43,856 bases of DNA from Acidobacteriota bacterium (GTDB taxonomy: Bacteria > Acidobacteriota > Terriglobia > Acidiferrales > UBA7541), in NCBI GenBank assembly GCA_003224105.1, contig QHYL01000409.1, positions 1 through 43,856 of the forward strand, read 5' to 3'. Position numbers and translations under genes: made by a program. The notes below the pieces were generated by a model. It was not told the DNA's origin. It ran no database searches and saw only the letters and a program-made list of their open reading frames with translations. Position 1 is the stretch's first letter. Each line of letters starts with the position of its first letter. Of the stretch, positions 4,067-25,645 are shown one piece after another.

Positions 4067-5359
4067 TCAAGTGATTTGCGTTTGCTGTACAGCGGTGAGG
4101 CGGTTTTTCGATCGAAGCCGATTGTTCCGAAAATATTCGTGAATCAGCATTTCCATCTGTCTAGTACTTTTTCGGACGTCGAACAGCTCTTCGATTCTCT
4201 TGCGAGCATTCGTCCCCATGCGCTGGGCGAGTTCGTGCTCGTTGAGCAGGCGGAGAATGGCTGAGGAGAGGCAGTCAACGTCGCCGGGAGGAACGACAAA
4301 CCCGGTCACCCCATCGAGGGCGGCCTCGGTCAAGCCTCCGTTTTCAGAAACCACTGTGGGCTTGCCCATGGCCATGGCTTCGAGATGCGCAATACCAAGG
4401 CCCTCGAGCCAGGTGGTAGGACAATGCACAAAGAGGTCTGCGAGGGAGAGGATCTCCGGGATGTCCGTGCGCCAGCCTGTAAAAATGAAATAAGGGGAGA
4501 GTCCGAGGGCGTGGATCCGGGCTTTCAGGGTTTTCACTAACGAGTTGCTGATGCTGTTCTCGCCTTCTCCCACAACGAGGAAAACCACGTCTTTGTAGGA
4601 TTTGACAACAGACGCGGCCGCCTCTACAACCTCGCGGTGCCCTTTGCCCTCGACCAAACGGGAAACGCAAGCTACAACCTTCTTTCCCACGGAGATGCCC
4701 AACTCGTTTCGCAACTCCGAATTGTGAGAGCCGGGTACGTATCTTTTTAGGTCGACGCCTTCAAAAACGGTGGCCACTCTTTTTGTCCCCGGGTTGTTCT
4801 GCAACTGGTCTTGTGAAGTCGCTGCGGAGATGGCAATAAAGAGGTCAATCCAAGGAGTGAGGATTTTCTTGAGTCTCCTGGCCTCTCCGATGCCACCGGA
4901 CTTTCGGCAAACGCAAGGGAGGTGAGTCAGGCGCGCAGCCAAGGCTCCGACGCGATGATAGTGGACATCGTTATTCAGGATAATGAGGTCAATGTGATTT
5001 GTTTTCAGAATTCTCAAGAGTCTCCAGAGACGAAGAAGATCCAAAAGAAACAATTGAAGGATGAAGTGCAGCGCGACCTTGGCGAGGTGCAGCCAGGTCC
5101 AGCGGGACCTGCGTGCGAGGAGCTTTTCCTGGAGATAGTTATCAAGAGGCTGAGACCGGCTGAGAAAGAAAATCGGCAAGGCCATTTGCTGAACGGCCTT
5201 GGTGTCCGGAGAGGCATGAAGAGAGTAGAAAGCGACGAAAGGCTGGAATTGATCCTTATCCAGGTAGATTAAGAAATCGCGAAGGAAAGTAGCGTTGCCG
5301 CCGTAGCCGCCGCCGCTGTCGATGATCAGAATTCGATGACGGTCCGAGAATTGATTCAT
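4067..5359 (-). CDS. Glycosyltransferase family 4
   Basis: VSRLVEGKG, FTGWRTDIPEIL, EGLGIAHLEAMAMGKPTV (EX7E), G..VPPGD motifs. Confidence 0.92.
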   Translation of the reverse strand: MNQFSDRHRILIIDSGGGYGGNATFLRDFLIYLDKDQFQPFVAFYSLHASPDTKAVQQMALPIFFLSRSQPLDNYLQEKLLARRSRWTWLHLAKVALHFILQLFLLDLLRLWRLLRILKTNHIDLIILNNDVHYHRVGALAARLTHLPCVCRKSGGIGEARRLKKILTPWIDLFIAISAATSQDQLQNNPGTKRVATVFEGVDLKRYVPGSHNSELRNELGISVGKKVVACVSRLVEGKGHREVVEAAASVVKSYKDVVFLVVGEGENSISNSLVKTLKARIHALGLSPYFIFTGWRTDIPEILSLADLFVHCPTTWLEGLGIAHLEAMAMGKPTVVSENGGLTEAALDGVTGFVVPPGDVDCLSSAILRLLNEHELAQRMGTNARKRIEELFDVRKSTRQMEMLIHEYFRNNRLRSKNRLTAVQQTQIT

Positions 5360-5435: not shown

Positions 5436-6449
5436 CTAGGAGGAGGCCCGAAAGACGTTCTCTACATTTCCCACGTTTTCCACAAGGAGGGGGTGCAAGT
5501 GGAGATAGCGCGTGGCGTTTCGCTTGGAGTCGATAAGCCGATAGATGCGTTCGGCCTGCTCGACCGTTAAACCGGTGGCCGCGCCCGCTTCGTTTGCGGG
5601 AACCCCCTGATTACGAGCGTAGAGGCAGAGGTCCATTTTGTCGTAGGGAAGTGTGAAATAGAATTCTTCCTGAGACTGGTCGAGCGAGTAGGTATCGGTG
5701 GTGGGCTGGCGCTGCTGAATTTCGCGAGGGATGTTTAGATATTCCGCTAGCAGATACACTTGCGTTTTGTATAAGTGAGCGATCGGTTTGAGGTCGGCGG
5801 CGCCGTCGCCATTTTTGACAAAGAAGCCTTGTTCGTACTCCAAACGGTTGGGCGTGCCAACTACGGCATAGTTGAGACGATCCGCGTGGTAATACTCGAT
5901 CATTTTCCGCGTGCGCTGCTTGAAGTTGCTAGCGGCGACGATCCCTAAGAAGGCTTCTGGAGTAAGGCGGGCGCGGGTTTGAACGCCAGCCGGGGAGCGC
6001 ACGACAACGGAATAAAACGGGTAGGCCGGGGCATTCAGAAGATTTGGCATGACGATCTTGCATTTGTAGTTTTCGCCGTATTCGGGGAGGACGGTGCGTA
6101 TGGCTTCGTCACGGCGTTGATAACACCCGGCGGCCTGGAGAATCGGAGTGATGTTCTCGAGAACCGTTTTGATTCCCAGAGAATCGGCGACGAGCTGGCC
6201 CAGGTGCAGCGTGTCGGGAGAGGACTCAGCCTCCGGCATAAATAGGCCCAGCACGCGGTCAGCGCCCAGGGCGCGGACGCAGAGGGCCGCGGCGACGCTG
6301 CTGTCTATGCCGCCAGAGAGGCCGAGTACGACACCTTTGCGTTTTAGCTGGTGATGCAGGCAATCGCGAATACAGGCTTCGATCCGTTCGGCGACTTGGG
6401 GGGCGTCAATCTCCAAGACTTCGGGCGACAGTTTAGTTTGAATGTTCAT
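5436..6449 (-). CDS. nadE: NH3-dependent NAD+ synthetase-like protein (NadE paralogue with internal insertion)
   Basis: LGLSGGIDSS PP-loop, NFKQRTR, GTPNRLE..GFFVKNGDG.AD..PIAHLYKTQV; no glutaminase domain; start overlaps upstream stop (ATGA). Confidence 0.85.
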   Translation of the reverse strand: MNIQTKLSPEVLEIDAPQVAERIEACIRDCLHHQLKRKGVVLGLSGGIDSSVAAALCVRALGADRVLGLFMPEAESSPDTLHLGQLVADSLGIKTVLENITPILQAAGCYQRRDEAIRTVLPEYGENYKCKIVMPNLLNAPAYPFYSVVVRSPAGVQTRARLTPEAFLGIVAASNFKQRTRKMIEYYHADRLNYAVVGTPNRLEYEQGFFVKNGDGAADLKPIAHLYKTQVYLLAEYLNIPREIQQRQPTTDTYSLDQSQEEFYFTLPYDKMDLCLYARNQGVPANEAGAATGLTVEQAERIYRLIDSKRNATRYLHLHPLLVENVGNVENVFRASS

Positions 6450-8008
6450 TCACCGGCTCCCACGGGTACAGCAAGCTCACGCTTGCTGATTTTTCCGCTG
6501 GAAGTTTTGGGCAACGAATCGCGAAACTCGATGAACTTCGGCACCATGAAGTCCTCCAGATTGGCGGAGCAGTGGCGCTGGACGTCGCGTTCGGTGAGTT
6601 GAGCGCCATCGCGCAGAGTGATGACCGCTTTGATGGCTTGGCCTAGAATTTCGTCGGGGATGCCAACCACTGCGGCTTCGGCGATTCCCTCGAGGCCGTA
6701 CAAGACCTCTTCAACTTCCTTGGGACTGACTTTTTCGCCGCGAGTTTTGATGATGTCGTCTTTACGCGCGATAAAGTAGAGAAAGCCTTCTTCATCCATT
6801 TTGAAGAGATCGCCCGTATACAGGACGTTTTCTCCCGGGAGCGGGCCCGGCCGCAGGACCTTGTTTGTGGCATCGGGAGCCTCCCAATAACCCTTCATGA
6901 CGTTGGAGCCGCGAACCACAAGTTCACCGATGACGTTTGGCCCGACACGGCGGCCGTGGTCATCGACGATGTAAACCTCTTCGTTGGGCATGCCTCGGCC
7001 CACTGAGCTGGGCCGCACGTCGATTTGATCCGGCGGCAAGTAGGAGACGCGCTTGCATTCCGTGAGGCCATACATGGAATAGAGTTTGACGTGCGGAAAA
7101 AGATTCCGCAGTTGGAGGATGTGGTGAGTGGGCAAGGCCGCGGCGGTGTTGGTGATGTAGCGGAGGCTGGAAAAGTCAAAGTCTTGCAGATTGAGCTGAA
7201 GAAGGATGGCGGAGATGGTTGGAACGAGAGGAAAGCCAGTGACTCTCTCGCGAACCAGTTTCTCGATGACTGCGTAGGGGTAGGTGAAGGAACGTTCCAG
7301 AACGATCGTGGCACCGACCTTGAACGCCATCAAAACCTGATAGAGCCCATAATCGAAGGAGAGAGGGAGAACATTGAGAATGACGTCGTCGGCGGTGTTT
7401 TCGAGATAGGTGGTGATGGAAGTCGCCGCGGAAACGATGTTTAGATGCGTCAGCATGACGCCCTTGGGTTTGCCGGTCGAGCCGGAAGTGTAGATTAGAG
7501 CTGCTAAATCGATATCAATGCATTTCTTGGGAAGAGGCAGCTTCGAAAAGCGGGCGCCATTGAAGAGGTTTTCAAGAGAGAGTACTTTTAAGCGTCGGTC
7601 GTTGGGAGGAGTTGCATGCAATCCGGTGACGAAGAAGTGATTAAGAAAGGGAAGCTGCGCGCTGTATTTCTCTACGCCAGCATACTTTCGTGAATCCGTG
7701 ATAAGCGCCACGGCTCGGCAGTTATTCAAAATGTAGGCGAGCTTATCCGGTTTGGTCGTGGGATTCACCACAAGGAAGACCGCCCCCGCCTTTAATACAG
7801 CAAAGATGGACAATACGGCTTCGACGGAATTGTCCAGGTAGATGGCAACGCGGTCACCGCGCTCGACGCCATTTTCAATCAGCGCGTGGGCCAATTGGTT
7901 GGACTGCTCTTCGATTTCCCTGTAAGTCAGACGGCGCTCCTGACAAACCAAGGCGGTTTTGTCAGGACTCCGCTGAGCGCTCAGTTCAAGAAATTGTTCG
8001 ACCTGCAT
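6446..8008 (-). CDS. AMP-dependent acyl-CoA/acyl-carrier ligase (ANL superfamily)
   Basis: YTSGSTGKPKG, SFDYG, MYGLTE, YTGD, RKDDIIKTRGEKVSPKEVE, LPKTSSGK motifs. Confidence 0.93.
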   Translation of the reverse strand: MQVEQFLELSAQRSPDKTALVCQERRLTYREIEEQSNQLAHALIENGVERGDRVAIYLDNSVEAVLSIFAVLKAGAVFLVVNPTTKPDKLAYILNNCRAVALITDSRKYAGVEKYSAQLPFLNHFFVTGLHATPPNDRRLKVLSLENLFNGARFSKLPLPKKCIDIDLAALIYTSGSTGKPKGVMLTHLNIVSAATSITTYLENTADDVILNVLPLSFDYGLYQVLMAFKVGATIVLERSFTYPYAVIEKLVRERVTGFPLVPTISAILLQLNLQDFDFSSLRYITNTAAALPTHHILQLRNLFPHVKLYSMYGLTECKRVSYLPPDQIDVRPSSVGRGMPNEEVYIVDDHGRRVGPNVIGELVVRGSNVMKGYWEAPDATNKVLRPGPLPGENVLYTGDLFKMDEEGFLYFIARKDDIIKTRGEKVSPKEVEEVLYGLEGIAEAAVVGIPDEILGQAIKAVITLRDGAQLTERDVQRHCSANLEDFMVPKFIEFRDSLPKTSSGKISKRELAVPVGAGE

Positions 8009-8019
8009 CTCTTTAGTCC

Positions 8020-8277
8020 TCAGGAAGCATGCTGAAGTTTTGTCTCCAGGAACCTCACCAGGTTGTTGATGGAATCCAAGTTGTCGGGAACAAGTTCGCG
8101 ATCGTGGATTTTGATGTGGTATTTCTCTTCAAGAAACACGACCAATTCCAGAACGCCGGTGGAGTCGATGATGCCTTTGTCCAGGAAGGAGTCATCGTTG
8201 CGCAAGTTACCGTTGCCGTGGCCGAAGAGAAAGTTATCAATGACAAACTGCCGCAGTTCCTGCTGGATATTCTGCAT
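8020..8277 (-). CDS. Acyl carrier protein
   Basis: 85 aa acidic protein, GIIDSTGVLELV phosphopantetheine-Ser motif, PDNLDSI tail; lies between AsnB and the ligase. Confidence 0.92.
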   Translation of the reverse strand: MQNIQQELRQFVIDNFLFGHGNGNLRNDDSFLDKGIIDSTGVLELVVFLEEKYHIKIHDRELVPDNLDSINNLVRFLETKLQHAS

Positions 8278-10219
8278 AAGAAGAAGTCACCCCAAAGTTT
8301 TTGACAAATTGGTCCACGACGAGCTGAGCTGAGAGGATCCCGACGAACCCCATGTTGTCCCTTACCCCAATGGCGCGGCCCTTCCGGAACTTTTCGACCA
8401 GGCGTTCCACGGCCAGGGGATCGAATAGCCCGTCTTGCCGAATTCGAACCGGTGACAGCAGAGCGTCAACATATTCGTGCCTTATTCCCTGAAAGAAACT
8501 CTTTCCATCTGGCGCGCGGTACGGCTGCTTGTGCCTTTTGCTGATACTCGATGGAACCAATCCGCCGGCGCAGCGCTTCAGAAGATACTTTTCGTTGAGG
8601 ACTTTCATTTTCAAGGATGGGGGAATCCTTGAAGCAAATTCGACGACGCGGTAATCCAGGAAGGGAAATCTTCCTTCTACCGAGTGAGCCATGGCGACGC
8701 GATCTCCCTGCGAAGAGAGAATGTAACCGGGCAGGAGATACGCGGATTCCAGATACTGGGCCTGGCAAAAGCCGTCCCACGCGAAATAGCCAGGGGGGAG
8801 AGCCATCCGAAGAATATCCGAGGCATCCCGCGACCCTATTTGCGATTTGACTTCGGCCGAGAAGAACATCTTCAACTTGGACGTCATCTGCCACCTTGGG
8901 AGATGGGAGAAAAACTCGCTGTTTTGGTCCTGTGGCCGTGCCCCGAAGAAGGCGCTCAGGTAGGCATCGGGCTGTCTTTGCATTGCTTGTTGATACGGAT
9001 ACAGCCTTCTATACAACAATGGCCTAAAGCTGGAATCGGGCTGCGCGGCGCAAAACGTGCGAATTTTGGCCTCTTTGAAGATATCGTAGCCACCGAACAT
9101 TTCGTCTGCGCCTTCGCCCGTGAGCACGACTCTGTAGCCATGGTTTCTAACGAGCTCAGAAAGAATGTAGAGAGGTGCAGGGGCTGTTCGAAGGATCGGC
9201 TTCTCGGTGTGCCAGATGACTGAGGGAAAAGCGCCGGCAATCTCACTGTAATCGCATTGCACTTCGTGATGGTCGGTATCGAGAAAGCGAGCTACTTCGT
9301 TTTGATAGCTACCCTCATCAAATTCCGGGTCATCAAACGCGACGGAGAATGTCTTCAGACGGGCATTTGTGAATTTCCTGATCAGAGCTGTAATAAGCGA
9401 TGAGTCCAATCCTCCGCTGAGATAGGCTCCCACCGGAACATCGGAACGAAGCCGAATCCGCGTGGCGTCGATAAGGAGATCCAACAAGTCGCTGGCATAG
9501 CGTTCCTCTGTGGCAGCGCCATCAGCTACGCTCTCGGCGGCGGGGGGAAAGTCGAGAGCCCAGTATTTCTTCAAGGAGACTTGCTTGTTTTGGACGGTCA
9601 GAAAGTGCCCGGGCGGCAGCTCCAGGATGTTCTTGAAGATTGTATGTGGAGGGACGGTGACCCAAAACGTAAAGATTTGGTCGAGAGCAACCGGATCGAT
9701 TTCCCTGAACACGCTCGGAACTGCAAAAATGGATTTGATTTCGGAGCCAAAGAGGAAAGCTCCGTTAGCAAGCGTGTAAAAAAGCGGCCTGACGCCAAGC
9801 CGGTCGCGGGAAAGAAAAAGGCTTTCCTTCTTGCTATCCCAAATAGCAAACGCCCACTGGCCATTAAGGTCGTGGACGCATTCCTCGCCCTTTTGCTCAT
9901 AAAGGCGCAGAAGAACCTCTGTGTCCGACTGCGTCTTGAACCTGACCCCTTTTTTGATCAAATCATTCTTCAATTCGATGTAATTGAAAATCTCTCCATT
10001 GAACACGATGGAAAGCGACTTGTCTTCGTTGTGCATCGGCTGCTTGCCAGATGCCAGGTCAATGATGCTGAGACGCGTGTGAGCCAGTCCTGCGGCCTTG
10101 TCCGTGTAGACGCTCAAGTCGTCTGGCCCTCTGTGCCTAAGCTGCCCGGCCATGCGCACGAGATGATCGGGATCTACGCGTTGTCCGTCGAGGTTCAGGA
10201 TTCCTGCTATGCCACACAT
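8237..10219 (-). CDS. asnB: Asparagine synthase (glutamine-hydrolysing)-like amidotransferase, copy 3
   Basis: MCGIAG Ntn cysteine, HRGPD, FNGEIFNY, RDRLG, LSGGLDSS, LTGEGADE, E.RFPFLD; C-terminus overlaps the ACP gene by 41 nt. Confidence 0.95.
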   Translation of the reverse strand: MCGIAGILNLDGQRVDPDHLVRMAGQLRHRGPDDLSVYTDKAAGLAHTRLSIIDLASGKQPMHNEDKSLSIVFNGEIFNYIELKNDLIKKGVRFKTQSDTEVLLRLYEQKGEECVHDLNGQWAFAIWDSKKESLFLSRDRLGVRPLFYTLANGAFLFGSEIKSIFAVPSVFREIDPVALDQIFTFWVTVPPHTIFKNILELPPGHFLTVQNKQVSLKKYWALDFPPAAESVADGAATEERYASDLLDLLIDATRIRLRSDVPVGAYLSGGLDSSLITALIRKFTNARLKTFSVAFDDPEFDEGSYQNEVARFLDTDHHEVQCDYSEIAGAFPSVIWHTEKPILRTAPAPLYILSELVRNHGYRVVLTGEGADEMFGGYDIFKEAKIRTFCAAQPDSSFRPLLYRRLYPYQQAMQRQPDAYLSAFFGARPQDQNSEFFSHLPRWQMTSKLKMFFSAEVKSQIGSRDASDILRMALPPGYFAWDGFCQAQYLESAYLLPGYILSSQGDRVAMAHSVEGRFPFLDYRVVEFASRIPPSLKMKVLNEKYLLKRCAGGLVPSSISKRHKQPYRAPDGKSFFQGIRHEYVDALLSPVRIRQDGLFDPLAVERLVEKFRKGRAIGVRDNMGFVGILSAQLVVDQFVKNFGVTSSYAEYPAGTAAVCH

Positions 10220-10259
10220 GGGTTCATCTCATTTTGGCGTGTTAGGTCGGATGGATGCC

Positions 10260-12095
10260 TTAGTTCAAACGAGCTTCATGGTCGGCACCAACGCCAACGG
10301 GATCACCGATGGACCCATCGGCCTGGCCTCTTTTTTCGCGGGACCGGCGCGCAACCAAGGTGTCTTCAAGGAACAAAAACTCGATCCCCGTATTCAGGAA
10401 AGTTTCGATGGCTTCTCGAGGAGTATTGACGATGGGCTGGCCTTTTACATTGAAACTTGTATTCAAGACCATCTCGCGTCCGGTGGTTTTTCCAACCGCC
10501 TCCAAAAGAGCGTGAAACTCTCGGTTGTCAGACGGAGAAACGGTTTGGACTCTTGCGGACCCGTCCACGTGAGTGATCGCTGGCAAGCCGCTGCGATGCT
10601 CCCGGCGGACGTCTACGGTCGTAATCATGTAGGGAAATTCGGCGTGCGCCGGGACGTCAAACCATTTGTCGACTTCGCGCAGGGTGACGGCAGGGGCAAA
10701 GGGGCGGAAAGCCTCACGCATTTTCACCATGGCATTAATGCGATCGCGCATTTCTGGATGTCCTGGATCGGCCACGATGCTGCGATGCCCCAGGGCCCGC
10801 GGGCCAAATTCCATGCGGCCGCGATACCAGCCAACTACGCGGCCATTCGCAATCAAACGGGCTGCGTGCGCGCATGTGTCCGAGAGATTCGCGAAAGAGT
10901 GGACTTCGGTGCGACTGTCAAATTCTTTGAGGGCTTCTTCTATTTGCGCGTGCGAATAGGCAGGCCCATAGAATGGCCCGGGAATGCGTGTGTTGTGAAC
11001 ACAGCCGTTCTGCGCGGCTCGAAAAGCGGCTGCTCCGAGAGCGGAGCCGTCGTCCCCGGCGGCCGGCTGCACGAAGATTTCGTCAAAAATGCCCGACTGC
11101 ACTAATTTTCCGTTGGCTGTGCAATTGAGGGCGACACCGCCGGCAAGAGCAAGACGGCGCAACCCGGTGCGCGCCCCGAAATGCTTGCAGATGTGAAGCA
11201 TGACGCGGTCGAGACACTCCTGGAGAGATGCAGCAACGTCGCGATGCTCGTCCCGTATCTCCTCGTTTGGATGGCGTGGCTTGATCAAATGCTCGGTGAG
11301 GCATTTTCGCGTAGCGAGGTGATTTTCGCGTTCGTCGCGCGTGCGGTTCATACGAAGAAGCGGGATTCGAACGGTCCCATCTTCGCAGAGCTCGACGGCT
11401 TGCTCGAAGAACGAGCGAAAGCGCGCAGGGTTACCGTAGGGCGCCAAACCCATGATCTTGTACTCGTCTGCGTTGAAGTCGAATCCAAGATGCAAAGTTA
11501 CTGTGGAATAGAGAATGCCGATGGAATCACGGGCCGGCATTTCTTTCAGCCTTTCCAGTTGTCCGTTGCGGGCATGATAGATCGTGGCGCTCTGCATCTC
11601 TCCCATGCCGTCAACGACGAAAACCAAGCACTCTTCCCAACCCGAGCAAAAATAAGCGCTTGCCGCATGAGCCAAGTGATGATCGACGTGGCGGACCCGG
11701 TCCGCGGCGTAGCCATCCAAATAGCGAGCGACCTGTGCACGAACAGCTTCACGGGAGTAGACATCTCTGAAGAGAGCGGCCGTGACTGGGTCAAAACTGT
11801 AGACCGCGCGATGCGGGGCGAAGTCGAACGAGTGGGCAATCTCGTCCACGTCGCTTAATGCAATACCTCCTTCAGCAAGACAGTACGAAATCGCGCCGAT
11901 GGGGAAGTCACCGGTGTGCTTTTTTCTGCTGAATCGTTCTTCAGCCGCTGCGGCGATGAGTTTGCCCTCAATAAAGAGTGCAGCCGCAGAGTCATGCCCC
12001 TGCGATATGCGATATTCGCGCTCTTCCAAATTCGGCCAGTGCGCCTTTTTGAAGGGTATGGCCCCTTCGAAACCGCTAATTCCAAGGATGATCAA
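10260..12095 (-). CDS. O-carbamoyltransferase (CmcH/NodU/TobZ family)
   Basis: GHDSAAAL, EERFSRKKH, HHLAHAASA, VDGMGE, EYKIMGLAPYG, AGGVALNC, EFGPRALGHRS, FRPFAP, THVDGSARVQTV, LNTSFN; TTG start. Confidence 0.95.
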   Translation of the reverse strand: MIILGISGFEGAIPFKKAHWPNLEEREYRISQGHDSAAALFIEGKLIAAAAEERFSRKKHTGDFPIGAISYCLAEGGIALSDVDEIAHSFDFAPHRAVYSFDPVTAALFRDVYSREAVRAQVARYLDGYAADRVRHVDHHLAHAASAYFCSGWEECLVFVVDGMGEMQSATIYHARNGQLERLKEMPARDSIGILYSTVTLHLGFDFNADEYKIMGLAPYGNPARFRSFFEQAVELCEDGTVRIPLLRMNRTRDERENHLATRKCLTEHLIKPRHPNEEIRDEHRDVAASLQECLDRVMLHICKHFGARTGLRRLALAGGVALNCTANGKLVQSGIFDEIFVQPAAGDDGSALGAAAFRAAQNGCVHNTRIPGPFYGPAYSHAQIEEALKEFDSRTEVHSFANLSDTCAHAARLIANGRVVGWYRGRMEFGPRALGHRSIVADPGHPEMRDRINAMVKMREAFRPFAPAVTLREVDKWFDVPAHAEFPYMITTVDVRREHRSGLPAITHVDGSARVQTVSPSDNREFHALLEAVGKTTGREMVLNTSFNVKGQPIVNTPREAIETFLNTGIEFLFLEDTLVARRSREKRGQADGSIGDPVGVGADHEARLN

Positions 12096-12119
12096 GGGAA
12101 TAAACTCCGATATGGCTGA

Positions 12120-13370
12120 TTAGCCGCCCTGCAAACGCATCCACCATTCGCCCTCCAAGCGGGTCAGGAAAGCGTCACCGCGCTGAATCACCTCGCGCAG
12201 GTCCGCGTGCCGGGAATGCACCAGCATCCGAGGGCCACTGAAACTAAAAAGGCAGCGTTCCTCAGAAAAAGCCGTGGCAAATTCCGGATCCATGCGCCCG
12301 GAAACTGCGAAGGAACCGGACCGCCAGGCATGGAAGAAAAGCTGATCCAGAACGCGGCGAATGGAATTCCTGGTGGCTACAAGCTGCAAAACCTGGCTGA
12401 TACCGTTCGGATTGAGGTAGTACATGTACCAGCCAACAATCTGCCCAGCCTCGTTTCGAACCAACGCTTTGCGCAATTTGCCATGCCATTGTTTCTCGCT
12501 GGCCTGCTGCAAAAGCCAGCGTAAAGATGATTCATCGTAGTCGGGGCAGAGCGATTTCGTGACTGCGAATCGCGGCAAGTGCTCGAGCAATGTCTCGCAT
12601 GAGAAGTCCTCTTCCGGCGATTGCTCTGACTGGTGAAACGGGCTCTTGTGTCTGCGTGCCACAAAAAAATCCGCTAGTGCGGAAAGTGGCCGAACACACA
12701 ATCGCGTGGCAGAAGAGAGTCCGCGGTCTTCCCAACGATCTAGAAAATAGCGGGCGGGGCGCAAAAGTCTTGTCCAATGAACACCGTAGGGAAAGGCCGT
12801 CAAACCTCCCAGACCTTCCCAGATCCTCCTGCTTGCGTCGTTTGCGCCATCCGTGAAGGACAAATCTTGCGGCCCGGCGAAGAAAGTCCTTTGGAGTTCA
12901 ACTGCAGCGAGGCGATTGCGGACGGAAGGATCCACCATGAACTGGCTGGAGACAACCGCGCGGATCGGCCGACCCTGCATCCGCATTCGACGCGGTATGA
13001 CACCGTAGAAACCACAAATCTTTTCTCCTTGTTCTTGATAAACCAAAGAAGGAAGATCCGCGTCGTACCAAGGATTTTCAAAGAAGAGGAGCCGAAAATG
13101 GATTTCGAGTTCGCTGGAGGAAAAGGGATTTCCAGGAAATACTCTTTTGTGCAAATCAACGACTTCTGGAATATCTTTGGGCGAAAAAGGCCGAATTCTC
13201 GTCGCAACGGCATAAGCGGCGGGCCCACAATCCGTCTTCGTTAACATTGCTGGACTTTTTGTCACACTGCAATGGGGAGAAGCCAGCCCGCTCGAGGTCG
13301 AGGGCGCTGGGCTCCTACTGTTAGTTCGGCTAGTAAGTTTGCGCAAGGCTAGTTGGCGACGATATGGCAT
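12120..13370 (-). CDS. GNAT-fold acyltransferase (possibly two-domain); true start may be ATG at 13247
   Basis: IRPF...DIPEVVDL start, ICGFYGVIP strand, QFMVDPSVRNR acyl-donor loop, ANDASRRIW..LG; first ~40 aa are low-complexity. Confidence 0.7.
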   Translation of the reverse strand: MPYRRQLALRKLTSRTNSRSPAPSTSSGLASPHCSVTKSPAMLTKTDCGPAAYAVATRIRPFSPKDIPEVVDLHKRVFPGNPFSSSELEIHFRLLFFENPWYDADLPSLVYQEQGEKICGFYGVIPRRMRMQGRPIRAVVSSQFMVDPSVRNRLAAVELQRTFFAGPQDLSFTDGANDASRRIWEGLGGLTAFPYGVHWTRLLRPARYFLDRWEDRGLSSATRLCVRPLSALADFFVARRHKSPFHQSEQSPEEDFSCETLLEHLPRFAVTKSLCPDYDESSLRWLLQQASEKQWHGKLRKALVRNEAGQIVGWYMYYLNPNGISQVLQLVATRNSIRRVLDQLFFHAWRSGSFAVSGRMDPEFATAFSEERCLFSFSGPRMLVHSRHADLREVIQRGDAFLTRLEGEWWMRLQGG

Positions 13371-13397
13371 TGAGTCCGGGGACTGTGGCCGATGCTC

Positions 13398-13661
13398 TTA
13401 ATGGCCGTTCTGCAACGCAAGATGGCAAAGACTTTTCACTACGGTGAACTCTTCTGGATTTACATCAAGCAAGTCGAGCTTTTCCTGGGTGCAATTCTCG
13501 ATAAATAAAACAAGATCGACGAAGGCAAAGGAATCCAAGAGGCCGCTTTCCAAGAGATTGGTGCTCTCAGAAATCTCCGTATGGCTGGCGCCATTGAGGC
13601 CATTCTGCTTGACCCAGCCAATCACCTGTTGGATGAGTTCCTGTTCGGCAACTGGTTTCAC
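13398..13661 (-). CDS. Carrier protein (DltC/ACP-like)
   Basis: 87 aa acidic protein, LLESGLLDSFAFVDLV Ppant motif; GTG start overlaps the stop of the adenylation gene (GTGA). Confidence 0.88.
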   Translation of the reverse strand: MKPVAEQELIQQVIGWVKQNGLNGASHTEISESTNLLESGLLDSFAFVDLVLFIENCTQEKLDLLDVNPEEFTVVKSLCHLALQNGH

Positions 13662-15268
13662 GCGACACCTTCGAGTAGACTCGACAGCTTTCCGCGGTCG
13701 ATCTTTTGATTTACGTTTAATGGCAACGAATCAACGAGGTAAATTTTCCGGGGAACCATGTAGTCGGGCAAGAGATTGCCGCAGCTTGCCAGAATGCGAG
13801 CCTCATCGAGGGTCTTGATGCCGGAGACGAAGGCAACAACGCCTTCGGCGCTGCCATTATGGACCGGCCAGGGAACCGAAACGACCTGGTCGGTGCCGCA
13901 GGCGCGACGTAGCACAGCCTCAATCTCCTGTAACTCGACGCGGTAACCGCGGATTTTGACCTGGTGATCCATCCGGCCGAGATAATGAAGATTACCGGAC
14001 TCATCTTGCTTGACGAGATCGCCGGTGCGATACCACAAGCGATCATCCGCGCCTGGCAAACGCACAAACTGCTGCTGAGTTTTTTCGAGATTATGCCAGT
14101 AACCTGTGGCAACTTGCGATCCGGAAAGGCAGAGCTCACCGGCGTCTCCGAGTGGGACGCTTTTTCCATGGGAATCTGTTACGGAGAATTGCTGGCCCTC
14201 GAAAATTTGACCAATGGGAACGAGGCCGTTTGAGCACTCCTGAAAAGACTTTTGCGAATCCCAGCGATAATGAGCGATGGCGATGGTAGCTTCTGTCGGT
14301 CCGTAGAGATTCTCAACGATGGAGTCTGGGGCAGCTGCCTGCCAGGACCGTGCATAAGACGCCGGCAGAGGCTCACCGCAAAACAGGCTGAAGCGCAGAG
14401 AAGGGAAGCAGCGCGGAGAGAGCAACCGCATTTTGGACAGGAGACCGGCCACCGATGGCACGGAAAACCACATCGTCAGCTCATGATCACGAATGAATTT
14501 GGCCGGGGCCATGATGGAATTGTCGGGAACGCAGTACAAACACGCTCCGCGTTCCCAACACACAAACATGTCGTGTGCGCTCAAATCAAATGTAAGATCA
14601 AATTGTTGAGAAAAGCGGTCGTGTTCACTTACGTTGTAGCGCTGGCAGATGTAGTTAACGTATGACCGCACATTGCCTTGGCTGATCGGAACTCCTTTGG
14701 GTATGCCGGTGCTGCCAGACGTGAACAAGAGATAGGCGAAAGAAGCAGGAGTGGAGTTTTCTTCAAAGGAGAAGTCTTCTCTGCTTGGCAATTGGTCGGC
14801 GAATAGGAAACGATGATGCGGATTCCGGGATGGCAGTTCTGCCAGCGATGCTACTTCAGGCAGAATGATAACCAGGGGCCGGTCCGCCGCTTTCAACAGG
14901 CCAGACAACTGGGGGAGGCATTCTTTACCGATGATGAGAACCGTGCAGTCGGATAGAGCGAGCATTTGGAGAGTTCGCTCCAGAGGGAACTTTGGATTGA
15001 GAGGCACGTACCCTTTGCTGGCTGCGAGCGAGCCGAGAACGCCTGCGTAAGCTGTTTTGCTGCGATACGCCAAAACAGCGACGAGTGAGAATGATTCCTG
15101 GTCGCTCCGCAGAGTGCGAATGGCCGAAGCAATCTTGCAGACGATCCTGCGGAGGTTTGCATAGCTTAGAGACTCGCCGTCTACAAAAAGTGCGGGACGC
15201 TGGGGGAAGCCCTCAGCGGATTCAAGGAAGCCGCGGAAGAGGCTTCGAAAAGATCTTTGTGGCATCAT
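13658..15268 (-). CDS. Stand-alone amino acid adenylation enzyme, DltA-like
   Basis: FTSGSTGIPKG, TFDLS, WFSVPS, LFCGE, NLYGPTEATIA, YRTGD, GRMDHQVKIRGYRVELQEIE, LPDYMVP, LPLNVNQKIDR. Confidence 0.92.
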   Translation of the reverse strand: MMPQRSFRSLFRGFLESAEGFPQRPALFVDGESLSYANLRRIVCKIASAIRTLRSDQESFSLVAVLAYRSKTAYAGVLGSLAASKGYVPLNPKFPLERTLQMLALSDCTVLIIGKECLPQLSGLLKAADRPLVIILPEVASLAELPSRNPHHRFLFADQLPSREDFSFEENSTPASFAYLLFTSGSTGIPKGVPISQGNVRSYVNYICQRYNVSEHDRFSQQFDLTFDLSAHDMFVCWERGACLYCVPDNSIMAPAKFIRDHELTMWFSVPSVAGLLSKMRLLSPRCFPSLRFSLFCGEPLPASYARSWQAAAPDSIVENLYGPTEATIAIAHYRWDSQKSFQECSNGLVPIGQIFEGQQFSVTDSHGKSVPLGDAGELCLSGSQVATGYWHNLEKTQQQFVRLPGADDRLWYRTGDLVKQDESGNLHYLGRMDHQVKIRGYRVELQEIEAVLRRACGTDQVVSVPWPVHNGSAEGVVAFVSGIKTLDEARILASCGNLLPDYMVPRKIYLVDSLPLNVNQKIDRGKLSSLLEGVA

Positions 15269-15340
15269 TGGGGCGATTGGTTTCAGTCCAAGGAGTATTT
15301 GCGGCCTAGTGCAAGTCTGGCCTAAGTCACAAGGGTAGAC

Positions 15341-16447
15341 TCAAGCCAAAATATCGATTCTTTCCAGCGCGCGATCAAACGCGGCACTGGCGTGCTGCAG
15401 CTCCTCTTCGGTGGCGGGGATATCCAGAATGAACGTGCGATATCCCAACGAGATGTACCGAGAGAGTTCGTTGGCGACAGGCTCGTAGCTTCCAACCAAG
15501 TAGGGGCAGAAGGTCTTGTATTGCTCAAAAGGTCTGAGCCAATAAGTACTTCTCATGGCGCGCGTTTTGTTTGCGGTATCCGAGAGTTGCTTGTGCCATA
15601 AGGAATCCGAAACCTTCATGGCGAGCTGATGAGTCAGTTCGCCCTTACGATCTTCCGGGAACCGTTGCTCGGCAACATCCCAGGCTTCATCCTCTGTTTC
15701 TCGAGCAATGATCCCCACGCGAATTCCGGACTTAAAACCACTAGTTGCTGGTTCTGCTTCGCACTCACTGGCTGGCCGCGGGTATTTCACCGCCGTCGCG
15801 CCAAGTTTTCTCGCGGCGTCCAGGCCGGCATCCGACGAGCCGGAGACAAAGATTTCCGGAAGAAGTTCAGGAGGAAGAGCCGGAGTCATTCTCAGCTGGT
15901 CGATCCTATAAGACTCTCCGTGAAAAGTGACTGGAGCGGCACTGGACAAAAGCTGATTGATGATCGTCGCGTATTCAATCAGACGGGCATAGCGCTTGTC
16001 GTGCGGAGTTGTGTCGTTCAATGCGACGAGGTCGTTTTTGAATCCGCCGGCGAGCATGTTCAGGTAAATCCGCCGGTGATGAAGGTACCCAAAGGAAGCC
16101 ACCATCTTTGCAACGGAATAGGGGTGCATGTAAACGGGTTGAATTGCTACCAGGGGGCTTAGTGTCCTTGTGGACTCAACGATGATTTGAGACACAAGCC
16201 AAGGGTCCACGAGCGAGTTGTCTGTGTATACGAGGATTCCCGTGCATCCGCAACGCTCGCTCCAGCGAGCGACCTTTCTGACTTGGCGGACATAGGAATC
16301 CTTGTCGAAGGCGAGGGATTGCGGGCAGGTCGAGAATATCTCAACTGGTCTTTCGACATTGCTGCGCATTACGATGGGCACCTGGGACAAGGGTTTCGCA
16401 CTTGCGAACGGAAGTTCCGACTTCAAGCCTGCTTTGCTTGAGAGCAT
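15341..16447 (-). CDS. Luciferase-like (LLM) flavin-dependent monooxygenase, SsuD-like
   Basis: DPWLV, PLVAIQP...HPYSVAKMVAS, RIYLNMLAGG, FVSGSSDAG, LVGSYE.VA..L..Y..LG pattern; strong RBS AAGGAGG. Confidence 0.88.
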   Translation of the reverse strand: MLSSKAGLKSELPFASAKPLSQVPIVMRSNVERPVEIFSTCPQSLAFDKDSYVRQVRKVARWSERCGCTGILVYTDNSLVDPWLVSQIIVESTRTLSPLVAIQPVYMHPYSVAKMVASFGYLHHRRIYLNMLAGGFKNDLVALNDTTPHDKRYARLIEYATIINQLLSSAAPVTFHGESYRIDQLRMTPALPPELLPEIFVSGSSDAGLDAARKLGATAVKYPRPASECEAEPATSGFKSGIRVGIIARETEDEAWDVAEQRFPEDRKGELTHQLAMKVSDSLWHKQLSDTANKTRAMRSTYWLRPFEQYKTFCPYLVGSYEPVANELSRYISLGYRTFILDIPATEEELQHASAAFDRALERIDILA

Positions 16448-16492: not shown

Positions 16493-18133
16493 CTACCGTC
16501 CGGGACTGTCAATTCCGTAAGAGTCCTTGACGTGGGAATAGGCTGCAGTCGAGGTGCTAGAACTAGTGATTGTTTGAATCGACGGGGACAATGTAGAGAC
16601 CACAGGGACTCGGTCCGGCTCGTTGGATGGTGAGGCTGCTTGAGAATGGAACCGCTGCTTTAGTGCGTCCACAAAATCAAATACAGACTGCAATTCGAGT
16701 TCTAGTTCCCAAGGGCTTCCATAGAATTTTTTCCGAAATAGATGGCTCTGGGGGCTTCCACCATTCGCGAGAGATTCACCACCATAAGAAGAGACATAGT
16801 GACGGTACGTGGATGCCGCCAAGTCCATCGCTAGTCGGGACATATTCTTTTGTTTTCCGTAAGGGAAGGCGAAAAAAGTGACTGGCTTTTTGACATGAGC
16901 CTCCAGATCTTGCCTTGAGCCAATGATTTCCGATTGCAGATGCTCCAAGTCTGTGGAGCCACAGTCGAAATGCTCGCGAGTGTGGCTGCCGAACTCGGCT
17001 CCGCGGGTGTTCCAATACGCGATTTGGTCCCAAGTCAAGGGTAGGAAGCCCTTCCTGTCTTTTGCGAGGTCATGGTCAAATTCCCTATGAGCCTCCACCG
17101 GCCCGGTGGTCACAAACAGCGTCGATGAAGTTTCTGTTTCGTTTGCCACTGCGCGAAGGCCAAGGAAATTGTCCGCGTAACCATCGTCGAAGGTAAGCAC
17201 AACTGTTGGAATACGTATCCGACGAGAGCGCAAGAGATCAGAAGCCTCCGCAAGACTCACTATGCGGTAATGCTTTCGGAGAAACAGAACTTGTCTCCAA
17301 AAGGTTTCTGTTGGCACACCCATTCTGTGAGGGCGATCAGAAACCAAGTGATGCGCAAGAATAAGCACCGGATAACGCCCCGTGAGCCGACGGTACCAAT
17401 TCCGCCCTAGGACGCTCGGAGAGAGAAGCAACAGAGTATCCAGGCAAAGCCTCCAGACAGATCTGCAGCGACTACTATGAGTTTCCGTTTGGAAAGTACC
17501 CTTCTCGGCGCCGTTGAGCTGTGAAAGAGATGGCGCGAGAACCCTAATCGCCCATTGCGATACCGCTGTCGTTGCAGCCTCTGAATGGCCAGCGATACAG
17601 ATTATGTCATCCCTGCTGGATTCCACATCCTTGCCTGGGTTAAGGATACTAGCTCGAATGCAACCATTTGATGCATTTACTGCGGAATCGGGGAGGGGAA
17701 AAAACTCTCCAAGCACAATAGTGAGATCGACGTCCCCAAGAGAGAGGGCTGCGACGCCTGCTTCCTTGTTTTCGCCCGTGACGATAAATAGCCATCCCGC
17801 TCTAGCGCATTCCTGCCTCAGCCTTTTCATATTGAATGTTGAATCGTTCGGGGAGGGGGGGCAGCCGTGGACGAACCAAAAGAACCATGCCACCACCTTG
17901 TCCACGAAGGAGTGGAAGAGAAATCGCACCTTTGACCATTGTCTGGGCATGAGGGAAATTTCTCGCGTCTTGCCCGTTGCGATCAACTGTTGGATCCAGG
18001 GGATAGAGCGCATGGGGCGCTGGACGACGCCACAAATTTGAGTTCCTGGAACTTCGCGAAGAAGTCGGTTCGCAAAGTTCCAAGTGCGTGAGGGACGAAC
18101 GTTGGAAATTAGCAAGACCCTTGATGTTCTCAT
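16493..18133 (-). CDS. Polysaccharide deacetylase (CE4/NodB) with N-terminal degenerate formyltransferase-like region
   Basis: C-terminal half has LTFDDGY, GSHTREH and FAFPYG; ATG at 18133 preferred over the TTG at 18175; N-terminal domain call is tentative. Confidence 0.82.
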   Translation of the reverse strand: MRTSRVLLISNVRPSRTWNFANRLLREVPGTQICGVVQRPMRSIPWIQQLIATGKTREISLMPRQWSKVRFLFHSFVDKVVAWFFWFVHGCPPSPNDSTFNMKRLRQECARAGWLFIVTGENKEAGVAALSLGDVDLTIVLGEFFPLPDSAVNASNGCIRASILNPGKDVESSRDDIICIAGHSEAATTAVSQWAIRVLAPSLSQLNGAEKGTFQTETHSSRCRSVWRLCLDTLLLLSPSVLGRNWYRRLTGRYPVLILAHHLVSDRPHRMGVPTETFWRQVLFLRKHYRIVSLAEASDLLRSRRIRIPTVVLTFDDGYADNFLGLRAVANETETSSTLFVTTGPVEAHREFDHDLAKDRKGFLPLTWDQIAYWNTRGAEFGSHTREHFDCGSTDLEHLQSEIIGSRQDLEAHVKKPVTFFAFPYGKQKNMSRLAMDLAASTYRHYVSSYGGESLANGGSPQSHLFRKKFYGSPWELELELQSVFDFVDALKQRFHSQAASPSNEPDRVPVVSTLSPSIQTITSSSTSTAAYSHVKDSYGIDSPGR

Positions 18134-18196
18134 GACTATTCTTGGTCGCTGAAAGTCAGCATCGTTTAGGAGCAAAGGATACTGGAGCCGGTAATC

Positions 18197-23644: not shown

Positions 23645-25645
23645 TCAGGAAGGCAGAACCACCTCGGAATATTTGCCCGAACCTGGTCCGCAAAAAGCGA
23701 AATGCTCGCGAGTCGGCTGCGATGATCGGACAGTATCGTCGCGGTCGAGGAAGATGCGGCACCACAACTCAAAATTCAGCAATCGCCAACAGCCTTCCGT
23801 GGCGGACGAACTGCCTTGGCGGTGAGCGTTCAAGAGATATTCAACGTAGCCTGGCTTAACAAGACGTCGTTCGGCAAGCCGTCCGTCTGTAAGAATCACT
23901 TTGAGCTTCTCGAAAAGCTGATTCCTCAACCAGGGTCGAATGGGAGTAGGGAATCCTTTCTTGTTTCGCTTGAGAACTTCCGGGGGCAAATCGCGAGTCA
24001 TTGCTTTGCGGAGCAGATATTTTCCGGATGAAAAGCGCAGCTTGTACCGCGCCGGAAGGCCGGCCGCGAACTCCACAACCTTGTGATCCAGGAAGGGGAC
24101 GCGGCTCTCGATAGACGCAGCCATACTCATTTGGTCTTGTTTCATGAGCAGCTCGACCAGATAAGTCTTGATATCCAGGTACAACAGATCGTTCAAAGCG
24201 TTTCCGTTCAATCCGCTGGCTGGGAAATACTGCATGGAGTTCGCATAGGCATTCACATCGCAGAGTTCGTCGTTCAATGCATTGTCAAATAGCTGTGGCT
24301 GTTGTTGTTGAGGAAACGCGGCGTAGAAGTTGTCAAAGTAAACTTGTTCGAAACTCTCTGGATCGTACAGGAAGGAATGCCGCAATTTGCGTAGCATCCA
24401 GTCCGGGCCAACCTCCGAAGACAATGCTTTGCGCACGGTCTGCCGGACAAATTGCGGGACAATCGCCCGATACAACGGGCCGCCACGCAAATTCCAAAGT
24501 GCAACTCGATACTTCAAGTAACCGGCGAAAAGTTCGTCGCCACCCTCACCTGTTAGGACAACCTTTACCTTCTCGCTCGCCAAGCGCGACACAAAGAAGA
24601 GGGCAACACTGGATGGCCACACAAGAGGTTCATCTTCGTGCCAAATCAGGCGAGGCAGGGTTGCGAAGAAATCTTCCGGGCCGAGGATGACCTCGTTGTA
24701 TTCCGCTCCGATATGCTTGGCGACCGCCCGGCCGTAAGGCAATTCGCTATATTGGTTTTCGGCATAACCCACCGAGAAAGTTTGAATGGGCTCTTTTTTC
24801 AACGAAGCCATTACCGCAGCTATGGCGCTCGAATCGAGCCCACCGCTTAAGAAAACCCCCAGTGGGACATCGCTCATCAGGTGGGAGCGAACGGTTTCCG
24901 TGAAAAGCTCGCGAAACTGTGAGATGCATTGAGCCTCACCGAGAGGATTTTCCGGCGGCACATTATTCAAGTCCCAATACTCAGTGACTTGCGGTTGCGG
25001 ATTCTCTGCGGTTAGATCAATGCAGAGGCGATTTCCGGGCAGAAGTTTGTGTACATTCTGATAGAGAGTCTCCTGCGCCGCGAGATAACCAAAGGTAAAG
25101 AATTCAGGAAGCGCTCGCCGGTTGAGGCTGGCTTTGAAATCTCGTAGCTCGAAGAGAGCTTTGATTTCCGAAGCAAATGCGAATCGCTCGCTTGTCATCG
25201 CAAAGTAAAAAGGCTTGATTCCCAGTCGGTCTCTCGCACAGAAGAGCCTGTTGCGCCGCGCGTCCCAAATTGCAAAGGCAAACATGCCTCGGAGGTGAGA
25301 GACACAATCGTTGCCGTATTCCTCATATAAATGAACGATCGTTTCCGTATCGCTGTTGGAAGCGAACCGGTGGCCAAGCTTTTCCAAACGGGGGCGAAGC
25401 TCCGCGTGGTTGTAGATTTCCCCGTTAAAGACAATCCAAACGCTCCGGTCTTCGTTGCACATCGGTTGATGGCCGCCTGACAGATCCACGATACTCAATC
25501 TTTGGAAACCGAAAGCAACTGGGCCGGAGTGAAAGCTTCCTCGATCATCGGGGCCGCGATGACGAAGAACATTGGACATAGCCTCCAACTCTTCACCGAG
25601 AAACCCGCTTCCACGCAGGTCGAGAATTCCGCAAATTCCGCACAT
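23645..25645 (-). CDS. asnB: Asparagine synthase-like amidotransferase, copy 2
   Basis: MCGICG, HRGPD, FNGEIYN, RDRLGIKP, LSGGLDSS, LTGEGGDE, KQDQMSMAASIESRVPFLD, KKGFPTP. Confidence 0.95.
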   Translation of the reverse strand: MCGICGILDLRGSGFLGEELEAMSNVLRHRGPDDRGSFHSGPVAFGFQRLSIVDLSGGHQPMCNEDRSVWIVFNGEIYNHAELRPRLEKLGHRFASNSDTETIVHLYEEYGNDCVSHLRGMFAFAIWDARRNRLFCARDRLGIKPFYFAMTSERFAFASEIKALFELRDFKASLNRRALPEFFTFGYLAAQETLYQNVHKLLPGNRLCIDLTAENPQPQVTEYWDLNNVPPENPLGEAQCISQFRELFTETVRSHLMSDVPLGVFLSGGLDSSAIAAVMASLKKEPIQTFSVGYAENQYSELPYGRAVAKHIGAEYNEVILGPEDFFATLPRLIWHEDEPLVWPSSVALFFVSRLASEKVKVVLTGEGGDELFAGYLKYRVALWNLRGGPLYRAIVPQFVRQTVRKALSSEVGPDWMLRKLRHSFLYDPESFEQVYFDNFYAAFPQQQQPQLFDNALNDELCDVNAYANSMQYFPASGLNGNALNDLLYLDIKTYLVELLMKQDQMSMAASIESRVPFLDHKVVEFAAGLPARYKLRFSSGKYLLRKAMTRDLPPEVLKRNKKGFPTPIRPWLRNQLFEKLKVILTDGRLAERRLVKPGYVEYLLNAHRQGSSSATEGCWRLLNFELWCRIFLDRDDTVRSSQPTREHFAFCGPGSGKYSEVVLPS

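Follow-up and report, generated by a model that had tools for sequence, protein, structure and literature searches.

We analysed contig QHYL01000409.1 of an Acidobacteriota bacterium (assembly GCA_003224105.1), a stretch of 43,856 nucleotides that is called the window below; it is the whole contig, 43.9 kb of a 5.1 Mb soil genome, and carries a Wzx/Wzy polysaccharide operon. At positions 5436-16447 of this operon lie nine genes for two adenylating ligases, two small acyl carrier proteins (ACP1 and ACP2) and five further enzymes. We found that this block consists of two modules which are gained and lost independently of each other. With somewhat better than even confidence, we propose that these modules, each built around its own carrier protein and inherited separately, probably make acyl groups derived from amino acids, which are then probably linked in the cytoplasm to the repeat unit of the Wzx/Wzy polysaccharide. 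The nine genes and two linked neighbours are the following.

15341-16447, minus strand: luciferase-like flavin monooxygenase (LLM), module 1; PF00296, TIGR03565 at 111.6 bits against a cut-off of 518.
13658-15268, minus strand: stand-alone adenylation enzyme of AlmE/DltA type, module 1; glycine (or D-alanine) predicted from pocket alignment.
13398-13661, minus strand: carrier protein ACP1 with DSF motif, module 1; weak PF00550, orthologues adjoin the adenylation gene.
12120-13370 (probable start 13247), minus strand: tandem-GNAT acyltransferase, predicted carrier-to-acceptor transferase, module 1; AlphaFold fold, relatives fused to carrier, nonribosomal peptide synthetase (NRPS) and polyketide synthase (PKS) parts.
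10260-12095, minus strand: carbamoyltransferase of TobZ/NovN/GdmN type, module 1; PF02543 and PF16861.
8237-10219, minus strand: AsnB-like glutamine amidotransferase of a dedicated clade, module 2; MCG N-terminus, SGGLDS motif, tree.
8020-8277, minus strand: carrier protein ACP2 with DST motif, module 2; PF00550.
6446-8008, minus strand: VinN-like adenylation enzyme, predicted to load aspartate via its side-chain carboxyl, module 2; best PDB core match 3WVN.
5436-6449, minus strand: NadE-like PP-loop amide ligase, an extra paralogue, module 2; PRK00876 at 512.8 bits, NadE fold.
4067-5359, minus strand: GT4 glycosyltransferase, outside the nine-gene block, travelling with module 2; orthologue neighbourhoods.
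16493-18175, minus strand: CE4 polysaccharide deacetylase, context, candidate source of a free amino-sugar acceptor; PF01522, adjoins module 1 in related loci.

The original prediction had described nine contiguous genes in this order with tiny gaps or overlaps. This description held, as all nine open reading frames (ORFs) are intact and lie on the minus strand, Pfam and NCBIfam agree with their assignment, and the intergenic gaps run from -41 to 72 bp; the gap between ACP1 and the GNAT gene is 27 bp with the longest ORF or 150 bp with the likelier Met42 start. It was also right that the window lacks a condensation, ketosynthase, thioesterase or MBOAT gene, since none of these families was matched among its 34 ORFs in the Pfam scan. 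Contigs from 3/3 soil DNA runs spanned the junction between the carbamoyltransferase and AsnB genes, indicating that their adjacency is not a misassembly. The nine genes are nevertheless not one conserved unit: no second complete copy was seen, and the nearest metagenome relatives end within the carbamoyltransferase gene.

Neighbourhoods of the NadE-like gene were taken from the best 80 of 92 GTDB loci (L001-L080), and those of the LLM gene from the best 80 of at least 565 metagenome loci, many of them short. The NadE-like gene was accompanied by AsnB in 61/80 loci, by the ligase in 61/80 and by ACP2 in 67/80, and the full four-gene core was found in 43 of the 51 loci of at least 15 kb, which come from many phyla. 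Only one of these 80 loci (L047) carried LLM and its ligase, and none carried the carbamoyltransferase. Among the 80 LLM loci, the module-2 ligase and the NadE-like gene were found in none, and AsnB together with ACP2 in one (L104). The GNAT gene was matched in 12/259 congeneric genomes, including five close orthologues; the four of these five with enough DNA (G704, G705, G708 and G733) showed deacetylase-LLM-ligase-ACP1-GNAT-carbamoyltransferase followed directly by wzx, with no module 2. The same locus in L003 carries the module-2 core and GT4 without module 1. Similarly, 300 family genomes yielded the module-1 ligase in 13, the module-2 ligase in 5 and both in none. The GT4 gene at 4067-5359 belongs with module 2: orthologues of at least 38% identity were found only directly after the NadE-like gene (12 of L001-L080) or after ACP2 (L104). 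Together, these results support the earlier idea of two parallel lines, because each half is found without the other in orthologous loci and the ligases are predicted to use different substrates (glycine or D-alanine versus beta-linked aspartate).

The core of the module-1 ligase was closest to IdnL7, AlmE and 8K4R, the last of which we take to be VinM, in the PDB comparison. 6AKD and 4OXI are named in a table of PMC11253843. As read from the alignment, the pocket of the ligase is DLHFLCLIA, compared with DLHLFCLIA in AlmE, and equivalents of AlmE D247, L248 and C316 are present. These are pocket residues of AlmE, whose Leu and Cys restrict it to glycine; DltA has the same Leu and Cys (PMC11253843), so that D-alanine has to be considered beside glycine. 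The predicted substrate of the module-1 ligase is glycine or D-alanine. In an alignment of 65 adenylation enzymes encoded at LLM loci, that of the window among them, the D-L pair and the Cys were kept in 58, and the 65 form two identity groups, at about 60% and about 33%. The ligase scored 263 bits against the DltA equivalog TIGR01734 (cut-off 560), and no relative of it was found in viral contigs. ACP1 fell below the Pfam cut-off (PF00550, 16 bits, E 0.015), but it carries the DSF carrier motif and has 67-85% identical counterparts in related loci.

In 44 of 56 informative loci, the gene directly downstream of the LLM gene encodes an adenylation enzyme, and in 6 more such a gene lies within 6 kb (50/56). 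C54, R226, H228 and R297 are important residues of SsuD. Besides failing the SsuD model TIGR03565, the LLM keeps the equivalent of R226 alone among these four (in 83/83 aligned sequences), and it belongs to a conserved clade that goes with adenylation enzymes and is not an SsuD. The partners at the 80 LLM loci vary, with AAC(3)-like genes in 14, methyltransferase in 12, formyltransferase in 11, small GNAT in 10, carbamoyltransferase in 8 and sulfotransferase in 6, a pattern in keeping with an oxidised amino acid whose cap can be exchanged. Hydroxylation of ACP thioesters by luciferase-fold enzymes is documented for MupA (PMC10952193) and BtrO (figure legend of PMC11354265), and alpha-hydroxylation of glycine is known from Sky39 (PMC9321520). 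The gene linkage suggests that the LLM may likewise hydroxylate an ACP-bound acyl group in the manner of BtrO and MupA. We also observed an LLM subclade without an adenylation gene (L121, L129, L130, L133, L136 and L140), in which AAC(3)-like, ATP-grasp, FAD oxidoreductase and GINT1-like genes lie in glycosyltransferase loci.

The carbamoyltransferase is full length, with Kae1-like and YrdC-like domains, and its best PDB matches were novobiocin carbamoyltransferase, GdmN and TobZ. Orthologues were found in 9/300 family genomes; five of these adjoin LLM, ligase and ACP, and one is on a short contig. A CE4 deacetylase gene stands before or after module 1 in related loci.

We then considered how an acyl group could leave its carrier. 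The AlphaFold model of the GNAT protein (pLDDT, the model's confidence measure, 90) has a tandem-GNAT fold resembling N-myristoyltransferase and Eis (Z 18-20), with matches to 3n7z (Z 19.8, root-mean-square deviation 3.5, 285 residues aligned) and 2p6e (Z 19.8, deviation 5.9, 315 aligned). We found at least 1,268 relatives. Most of the 19 longer ones are fused to a CelD/BcsL GNAT, a family that is also present at 29261-30541, and two form the C-terminal end of NRPS-like proteins. The fusions include ACP-GNAT (P0098, of near-normal length with an N-terminal ACP) and two proteins with peptidyl carrier protein (PCP) and condensation (C) domains, LbH-PCP-C-GNAT (P0122) and PCP-C-PCP-GNAT (P0135). 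Moreover, contig C1 of genome G864 (L265:120-7916) encodes a protein with the domain order adenylation-PCP-ketosynthase-acyltransferase-ACP-C-PCP-GNAT directly upstream of a wza/ExeA polysaccharide export locus; this hybrid NRPS-PKS is a candidate producer of a PKS/NRPS-derived glycan substituent. A further candidate, P0137, with GNAT and carbamoyltransferase in one chain, was rejected as a fusion and counted as adjacency only, as its GNAT similarity is lost before the end and it looks like a frameshift join. The GNAT family was located among polysaccharide genes in 13/13 informative places (14 were found outside the window). Since the GNAT domain ends carrier-bearing NRPS/PKS proteins at the usual thioesterase position and lies in polysaccharide loci in 13/13 places, it likely off-loads an acyl group onto a sugar; these fusions and places are the best evidence that the tandem GNAT likely takes its acyl group from a carrier protein, with a glycan as the acceptor.

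In module 2, the ligase core had VinN (3WVN) as its best PDB match. The motifs DY, TNTAAALP and YGLTECKRV correspond to DF, TNSAAALP and YGQTECKRI in VinN, with Asp at 235, a bulky residue at 236 and the shortened K-R loop present. The VinN pocket residues are D230, F231, S299, K330 and R331 (PMC11253843), all of them matched or conservatively replaced in the ligase. The code DYYP[T/S]TMKR was found in 45 of 65 aligned relatives, and others lack the Asp. The ligase is predicted from these residues to load aspartate through the beta-carboxyl; in the systems described in PMC11350588, such side-chain loading leaves the alpha-carboxyl and the amine free. The likeness of the two ligases to VinN and to IdnL7, a VinM-type enzyme, could also point to one convergent line of vicenistatin type, in which the VinN-like enzyme loads beta-aspartate and the second adenylation enzyme adds glycine to its amine to give a dipeptidyl group, and L104 and L047 indeed combine parts of both modules. 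We consider this very unlikely, because each ligase has an ACP of its own, the module-1 pocket is AlmE-like (D-L...C) and not IdnL7-like (D-C...A), and the modules nearly always occur apart.

D38 and S39 of ACP2 were invariant in 58 aligned relatives. Its top NCBIfam match was an ornithine-lipid ACP, at 55.8 against a cut-off of 130, and an OlsH/OlsI ornithine-lipid identity was rejected on this score, far below the cut-off. The AsnB-like protein keeps its N-terminal Cys (MCG start) and the SGGLDS motif and forms its own clade, with approximate likelihood-ratio (SH-aLRT) support of 100, apart from the other two AsnBs of the operon, in a quick tree of 51 rows that leaves out about half of the module-2 AsnBs. 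The NadE-like protein has the NadE fold with intact PP-loop and ATP motifs, a conserved insertion of about 65 residues and no glutaminase domain. It scored 182.6 against PRK13980 (cut-off 255) and passed only the PRK00876 subfamily model (512.8 bits) and the broad TIGR00552 domain model. The canonical long NadE of this genome is encoded on contig C172, so the module-2 protein is an extra paralogue; a NadE match was present in 110/120 family genomes, nearly all of the long type.

The intact fold and ATP motifs and the PRK00876 match would also suit an ordinary annotation without carrier-bound chemistry, in which the protein serves as an additional NAD synthetase, AsnB uses ammonia for the amidation of uronic acids, and a sugar hydroxyl is the direct substrate of the carbamoyltransferase. 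The carbamoyltransferases NodU and TobZ do act on free sugars. We regard this account as highly improbable, the least likely that we considered, given the canonical NadE elsewhere in the genome and the NadE matches, nearly all of the long type, in 110/120 family genomes, the joint occurrence of the four core genes in 43/51 long loci across phyla, and the separation of the module-2 AsnB clade from the operon's other two AsnBs.

From the observed genes, families, pocket residues, folds, linkages and separate inheritance, we infer the following substrates, products, acceptors and reaction order for the two carrier-protein modules. In module 1, the AlmE-like enzyme would adenylate glycine and load it on ACP1. 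The LLM, supplied with reduced flavin by a reductase whose gene lies elsewhere, would hydroxylate the glycyl group on its carrier. C-alpha is the most likely position, as with BtrO and MupA, and the nitrogen is the alternative. The carbamoyltransferase would cap the new group. The tandem GNAT would then take the unit off ACP1 and pass it to an amino sugar that the neighbouring CE4 deacetylase has freed. In module 2, the VinN-like ligase would place aspartate on ACP2 via its beta-carboxyl, and the AsnB-like enzyme would amidate the free alpha-carboxyl. As there are two carboxylate-adenylating enzymes for one free carboxylate, a second acid is implied; the NadE-like enzyme would adenylate this acid and join it to the amine of the tethered unit. 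Our best guess for it is a nucleotide-uronic acid in place of deamido-NAD, favoured because the acid bound by NadE is a dinucleotide and because module 2 is followed by a dedicated GT4; this is the most speculative step. The linked GT4 would install the modified sugar.

A more specific version is that the tandem-GNAT family is an unrecognised carrier-protein off-loading class which, on its own or as the terminal domain of NRPS/PKS proteins, puts assembly-line acyl groups on polysaccharide repeat units, with module 1 delivering a hydroxylated, carbamoylated glycyl group and module 2 using a repurposed NAD-synthetase paralogue that joins a nucleotide-uronic acid to a carrier-bound aspartamide. 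We put this forward tentatively, as a possibility that we rather doubt. No report of a hydroxylated, carbamoylated glycyl group on a bacterial glycan was found in the literature searched.

The link to polysaccharide genes was examined with a set of markers that are biased to the window's own proteins, on loci that are not independent of one another. Such markers were present in 25/51 long NadE-like loci (23/51 in an earlier marker count) and in 21/37 LLM loci of at least 9 kb, versus 9/54 long contigs of the window's own genome. Four loci (L042, L047, L061 and L076) had been added by Pfam scans, which covered 139 of 205 unassigned ORFs in 28 marker-negative loci. Counts with the CE4 and tandem-GNAT profiles are circular, as the profiles come from the same loci, and their informative part is the background, 1/54 contigs each. 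Module 2 is thus about threefold enriched in polysaccharide loci, and roughly half of its copies lie elsewhere. In Azospirillum thermophilum, the core was found with a GNAT and a deacetylase within a polysaccharide locus. Glycine- and aspartate-acylated amino sugars occur in O-antigens (PMC10609480). A description of either module in a polysaccharide locus was not found in the literature searched, subscription journals and supplements lying outside that search.

Several observations weigh against attachment to the repeat unit or against parts of the proposed chemistry. About half of the long module-2 loci, that of Sinorhizobium meliloti included, have no polysaccharide gene within 10 kb, nor a transferase gene nearby. 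The original prediction had named an occurrence of homologous blocks mostly outside polysaccharide loci as an outcome that would count against it, and for the AsnB-ACP-ligase-NadE core this is half the case; attachment to the repeat unit, which is itself inferred, stays plausible. Module 2 has no GNAT of its own in the window. Sixteen of the 37 LLM loci of at least 9 kb have no markers, some adjoining NRPS genes, and distant LLMs (39-49%) in the 4 cultured-strain plasmid regions examined lie in small-molecule-type clusters with P450, halogenase and exporters. An adenylation gene is missing from 6 of the 56 informative LLM loci, and of the 13 family genomes in which the module-1 ligase was matched, 8 lacked an LLM in the region examined. 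The pocket code cannot tell glycine from D-alanine, and three of the four GNAT fusions are known as metagenome protein clusters, at the protein level only. Instead of the LLM module, three of the nine carbamoyltransferase orthologues adjoin an acyl-ligase and a 2,000-residue gene (in the one case scanned, Pfam identifies it as a PKS). These three are L242, L243 and L244 (G671, G673 and G653), with carbamoyltransferase identity of 62-68%. Finally, L104 (16303-19926) keeps AsnB, ACP2 and GT4 while the ligase and the NadE-like gene are absent within the locus examined; loss, relocation or cross-loading by the module-1 ligase are possible explanations.

Some of these points suggest a different product. 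The stand-alone copies of module 2, the LLM relatives in small-molecule-type clusters and the top match of ACP2 to an ornithine-lipid ACP, far below cut-off as it is, would be expected if a diffusible small molecule or an aminoacylated lipid were made and the operon location reflected co-regulation or co-transfer. We think this unlikely, although it deserves weight: gain and loss of the modules takes place within a single co-oriented operon and extends to a specific GT4, the GNAT family lies among polysaccharide genes in all 13 informative places, and the condensation, thioesterase and ketosynthase families were unmatched in the ORFs scanned. It is also conceivable that a glycan is decorated which is not the exported Wzx/Wzy polymer, namely lipid A or lipopolysaccharide, as with AlmEFG, or the glycans carried by proteins that are exosortase (PEP-CTERM) substrates. 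For many operon genes the top-scoring families, below their cut-offs, are those of the XrtA/PEP-CTERM system, exosortase genes occur in some related loci, and the module-1 ligase is AlmE-like. This seems quite unlikely to us, since no AlmG-type acyltransferase or exosortase was found among the window ORFs scanned and the partner genes are wzx, wzy, wcaJ, wza and wzc. Attachment to the Wzx/Wzy repeat unit therefore stays our preferred reading.

The window genes lie nearly all on the minus strand, in the order wza-wzc-...-wzy-wcaJ-...-wzx. An acyltransferase-3 gene (1200-2474) follows wzx in the same operon and is another gene whose product might transfer an acyl group to the polymer. Two more GNATs of the operon, at 29261-30541 (CelD/BcsL GNAT) and 30600-31298, could either of them serve as the module-2 transferase; the latter is a 232-residue ORF without a Pfam match and is GNAT-like by an Atlas score of 0.99, with PF00583 on 30% of its cluster's members. 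An amidated polymer rich in uronic acids is suggested by two more AsnB-like genes (23645-25645 and 34045-36015), which come closest to TIGR03108 without reaching its cut-off, together with a heparinase II/III-like gene (25724-28120). Elsewhere, the genome encodes a flavin reductase and two phosphopantetheinyl transferases. Its contig C478 (genome G000) carries a second polysaccharide locus with its own tandem GNAT (38%), two wzx, wzy, a CE4 deacetylase, an ATP-grasp gene and wcaJ. The deacetylase at 16493-18175 has about 49 residues fewer than 13 aligned relatives near position 17593, where the contig of run X3 has about 147 extra bases and the contigs of X4 and X6 end; this is either a strain-specific in-frame deletion or an assembly slip. 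A formyltransferase-like origin of its N-terminus, suggested by eye, was rejected (hhalign probability 0.2%). RNA run X20 gave 4 short contigs at a depth of about 2, which is no evidence of expression, and promoter and terminator scans were at or below chance level.

To our knowledge, amino-acid substituents on bacterial glycans are well documented chemically, and for many of them the enzymes are not known. The modules are widespread in soil bacteria under misleading labels such as asnB, nadE and alkanesulfonate monooxygenase. If our proposal is true, it would explain the S. meliloti operon, provide a function for the PRK00876 NadE subfamily and add a new thioester off-loading family that links natural-product assembly lines to polysaccharide decoration.

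Finally, we compared the block with known systems. AlmEFG of Vibrio cholerae (lipid A glycylation) and DltA-DltC (teichoic acid D-alanylation) likewise aminoacylate a surface polymer with a stand-alone D-L...C adenylation enzyme and a small carrier. However, among the window ORFs scanned, to which the search was confined, there is no AlmG-type lipid A late-acyltransferase family and no MBOAT/DltB or DltD match; the DltA equivalog score failed, and unlike both systems the window has an LLM, a carbamoyltransferase and a tandem GNAT within a Wzx/Wzy operon. On pSymB of S. meliloti, asnB, ACP (SMb20651), ligase (SMb20650) and nadE form a cassette of SMb20649-52 type with the same four genes in the same order and a NadE-like protein 59.6% identical, the locus having been identified in strain RCAM1750 from its annotation and the order of its genes and not from the locus tags of strain 1021. 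Its ACP and ligase were reportedly studied in 2009. The cassette is stand-alone there, whereas the core in the window is embedded in a polysaccharide operon and has GT4 linked to it. In vivo, SMb20651 is acylated by SMb20650, which is no long-chain acyl-CoA ligase (FadD) (PMC7232532). VinN/VinL (vicenistatin), FlvN/FlvL, CtaD/CtaE and BtrJ/BtrI share with module 2 a beta-amino-acid pocket ligase with a K-R pair and an ACP. VinN-type systems for aspartate or glutamate side chains use a pyridoxal-phosphate decarboxylase on the free alpha-carboxyl (PMC11350588), in whose place the window has AsnB-like and NadE-like enzymes, with no PKS.

By its predicted function, module 1 can be likened to the butirosin 4-amino-2-hydroxybutyrate (AHBA) side chain (BtrI, BtrJ and BtrO) and to mupirocin MupA, in which a luciferase-fold oxygenase acts on an ACP thioester; the predicted substrate (glycine), capping enzyme, transferase family and acceptor differ. 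The butirosin unit ends on an aminoglycoside amine. WbeL is an adenylating enzyme with an ACP partner. The V. cholerae O1 tetronate genes (wbeL and neighbours) are polysaccharide-locus genes that supply an N-acyl substituent (PMC3441752), but with hydroxy-acid instead of amino-acid chemistry. A supposed parallel, an NRPS gene in type B flagellin glycosylation of Clostridioides difficile, was not borne out, as PMC5207246 did not contain the terms NRPS, non-ribosomal or carrier. Modular NRPS/PKS differ from the block by their condensation and ketosynthase domains, unmatched in the 34 ORFs scanned. The block cannot be assigned to Alm, Dlt, SsuD, housekeeping NadE or modular NRPS, and in its predicted loading, carrying and transferring it resembles AlmEFG/Dlt, with tailoring like that of butirosin and VinN. 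The view of an undescribed system stands insofar as no polysaccharide-locus description was found, while the core is of the S. meliloti pSymB operon type and surface-polymer aminoacylation is known from AlmEFG and Dlt. What is new here is the clean separation of modules within one locus, the linkage of GT4 to module 2 and the GNAT fusions.

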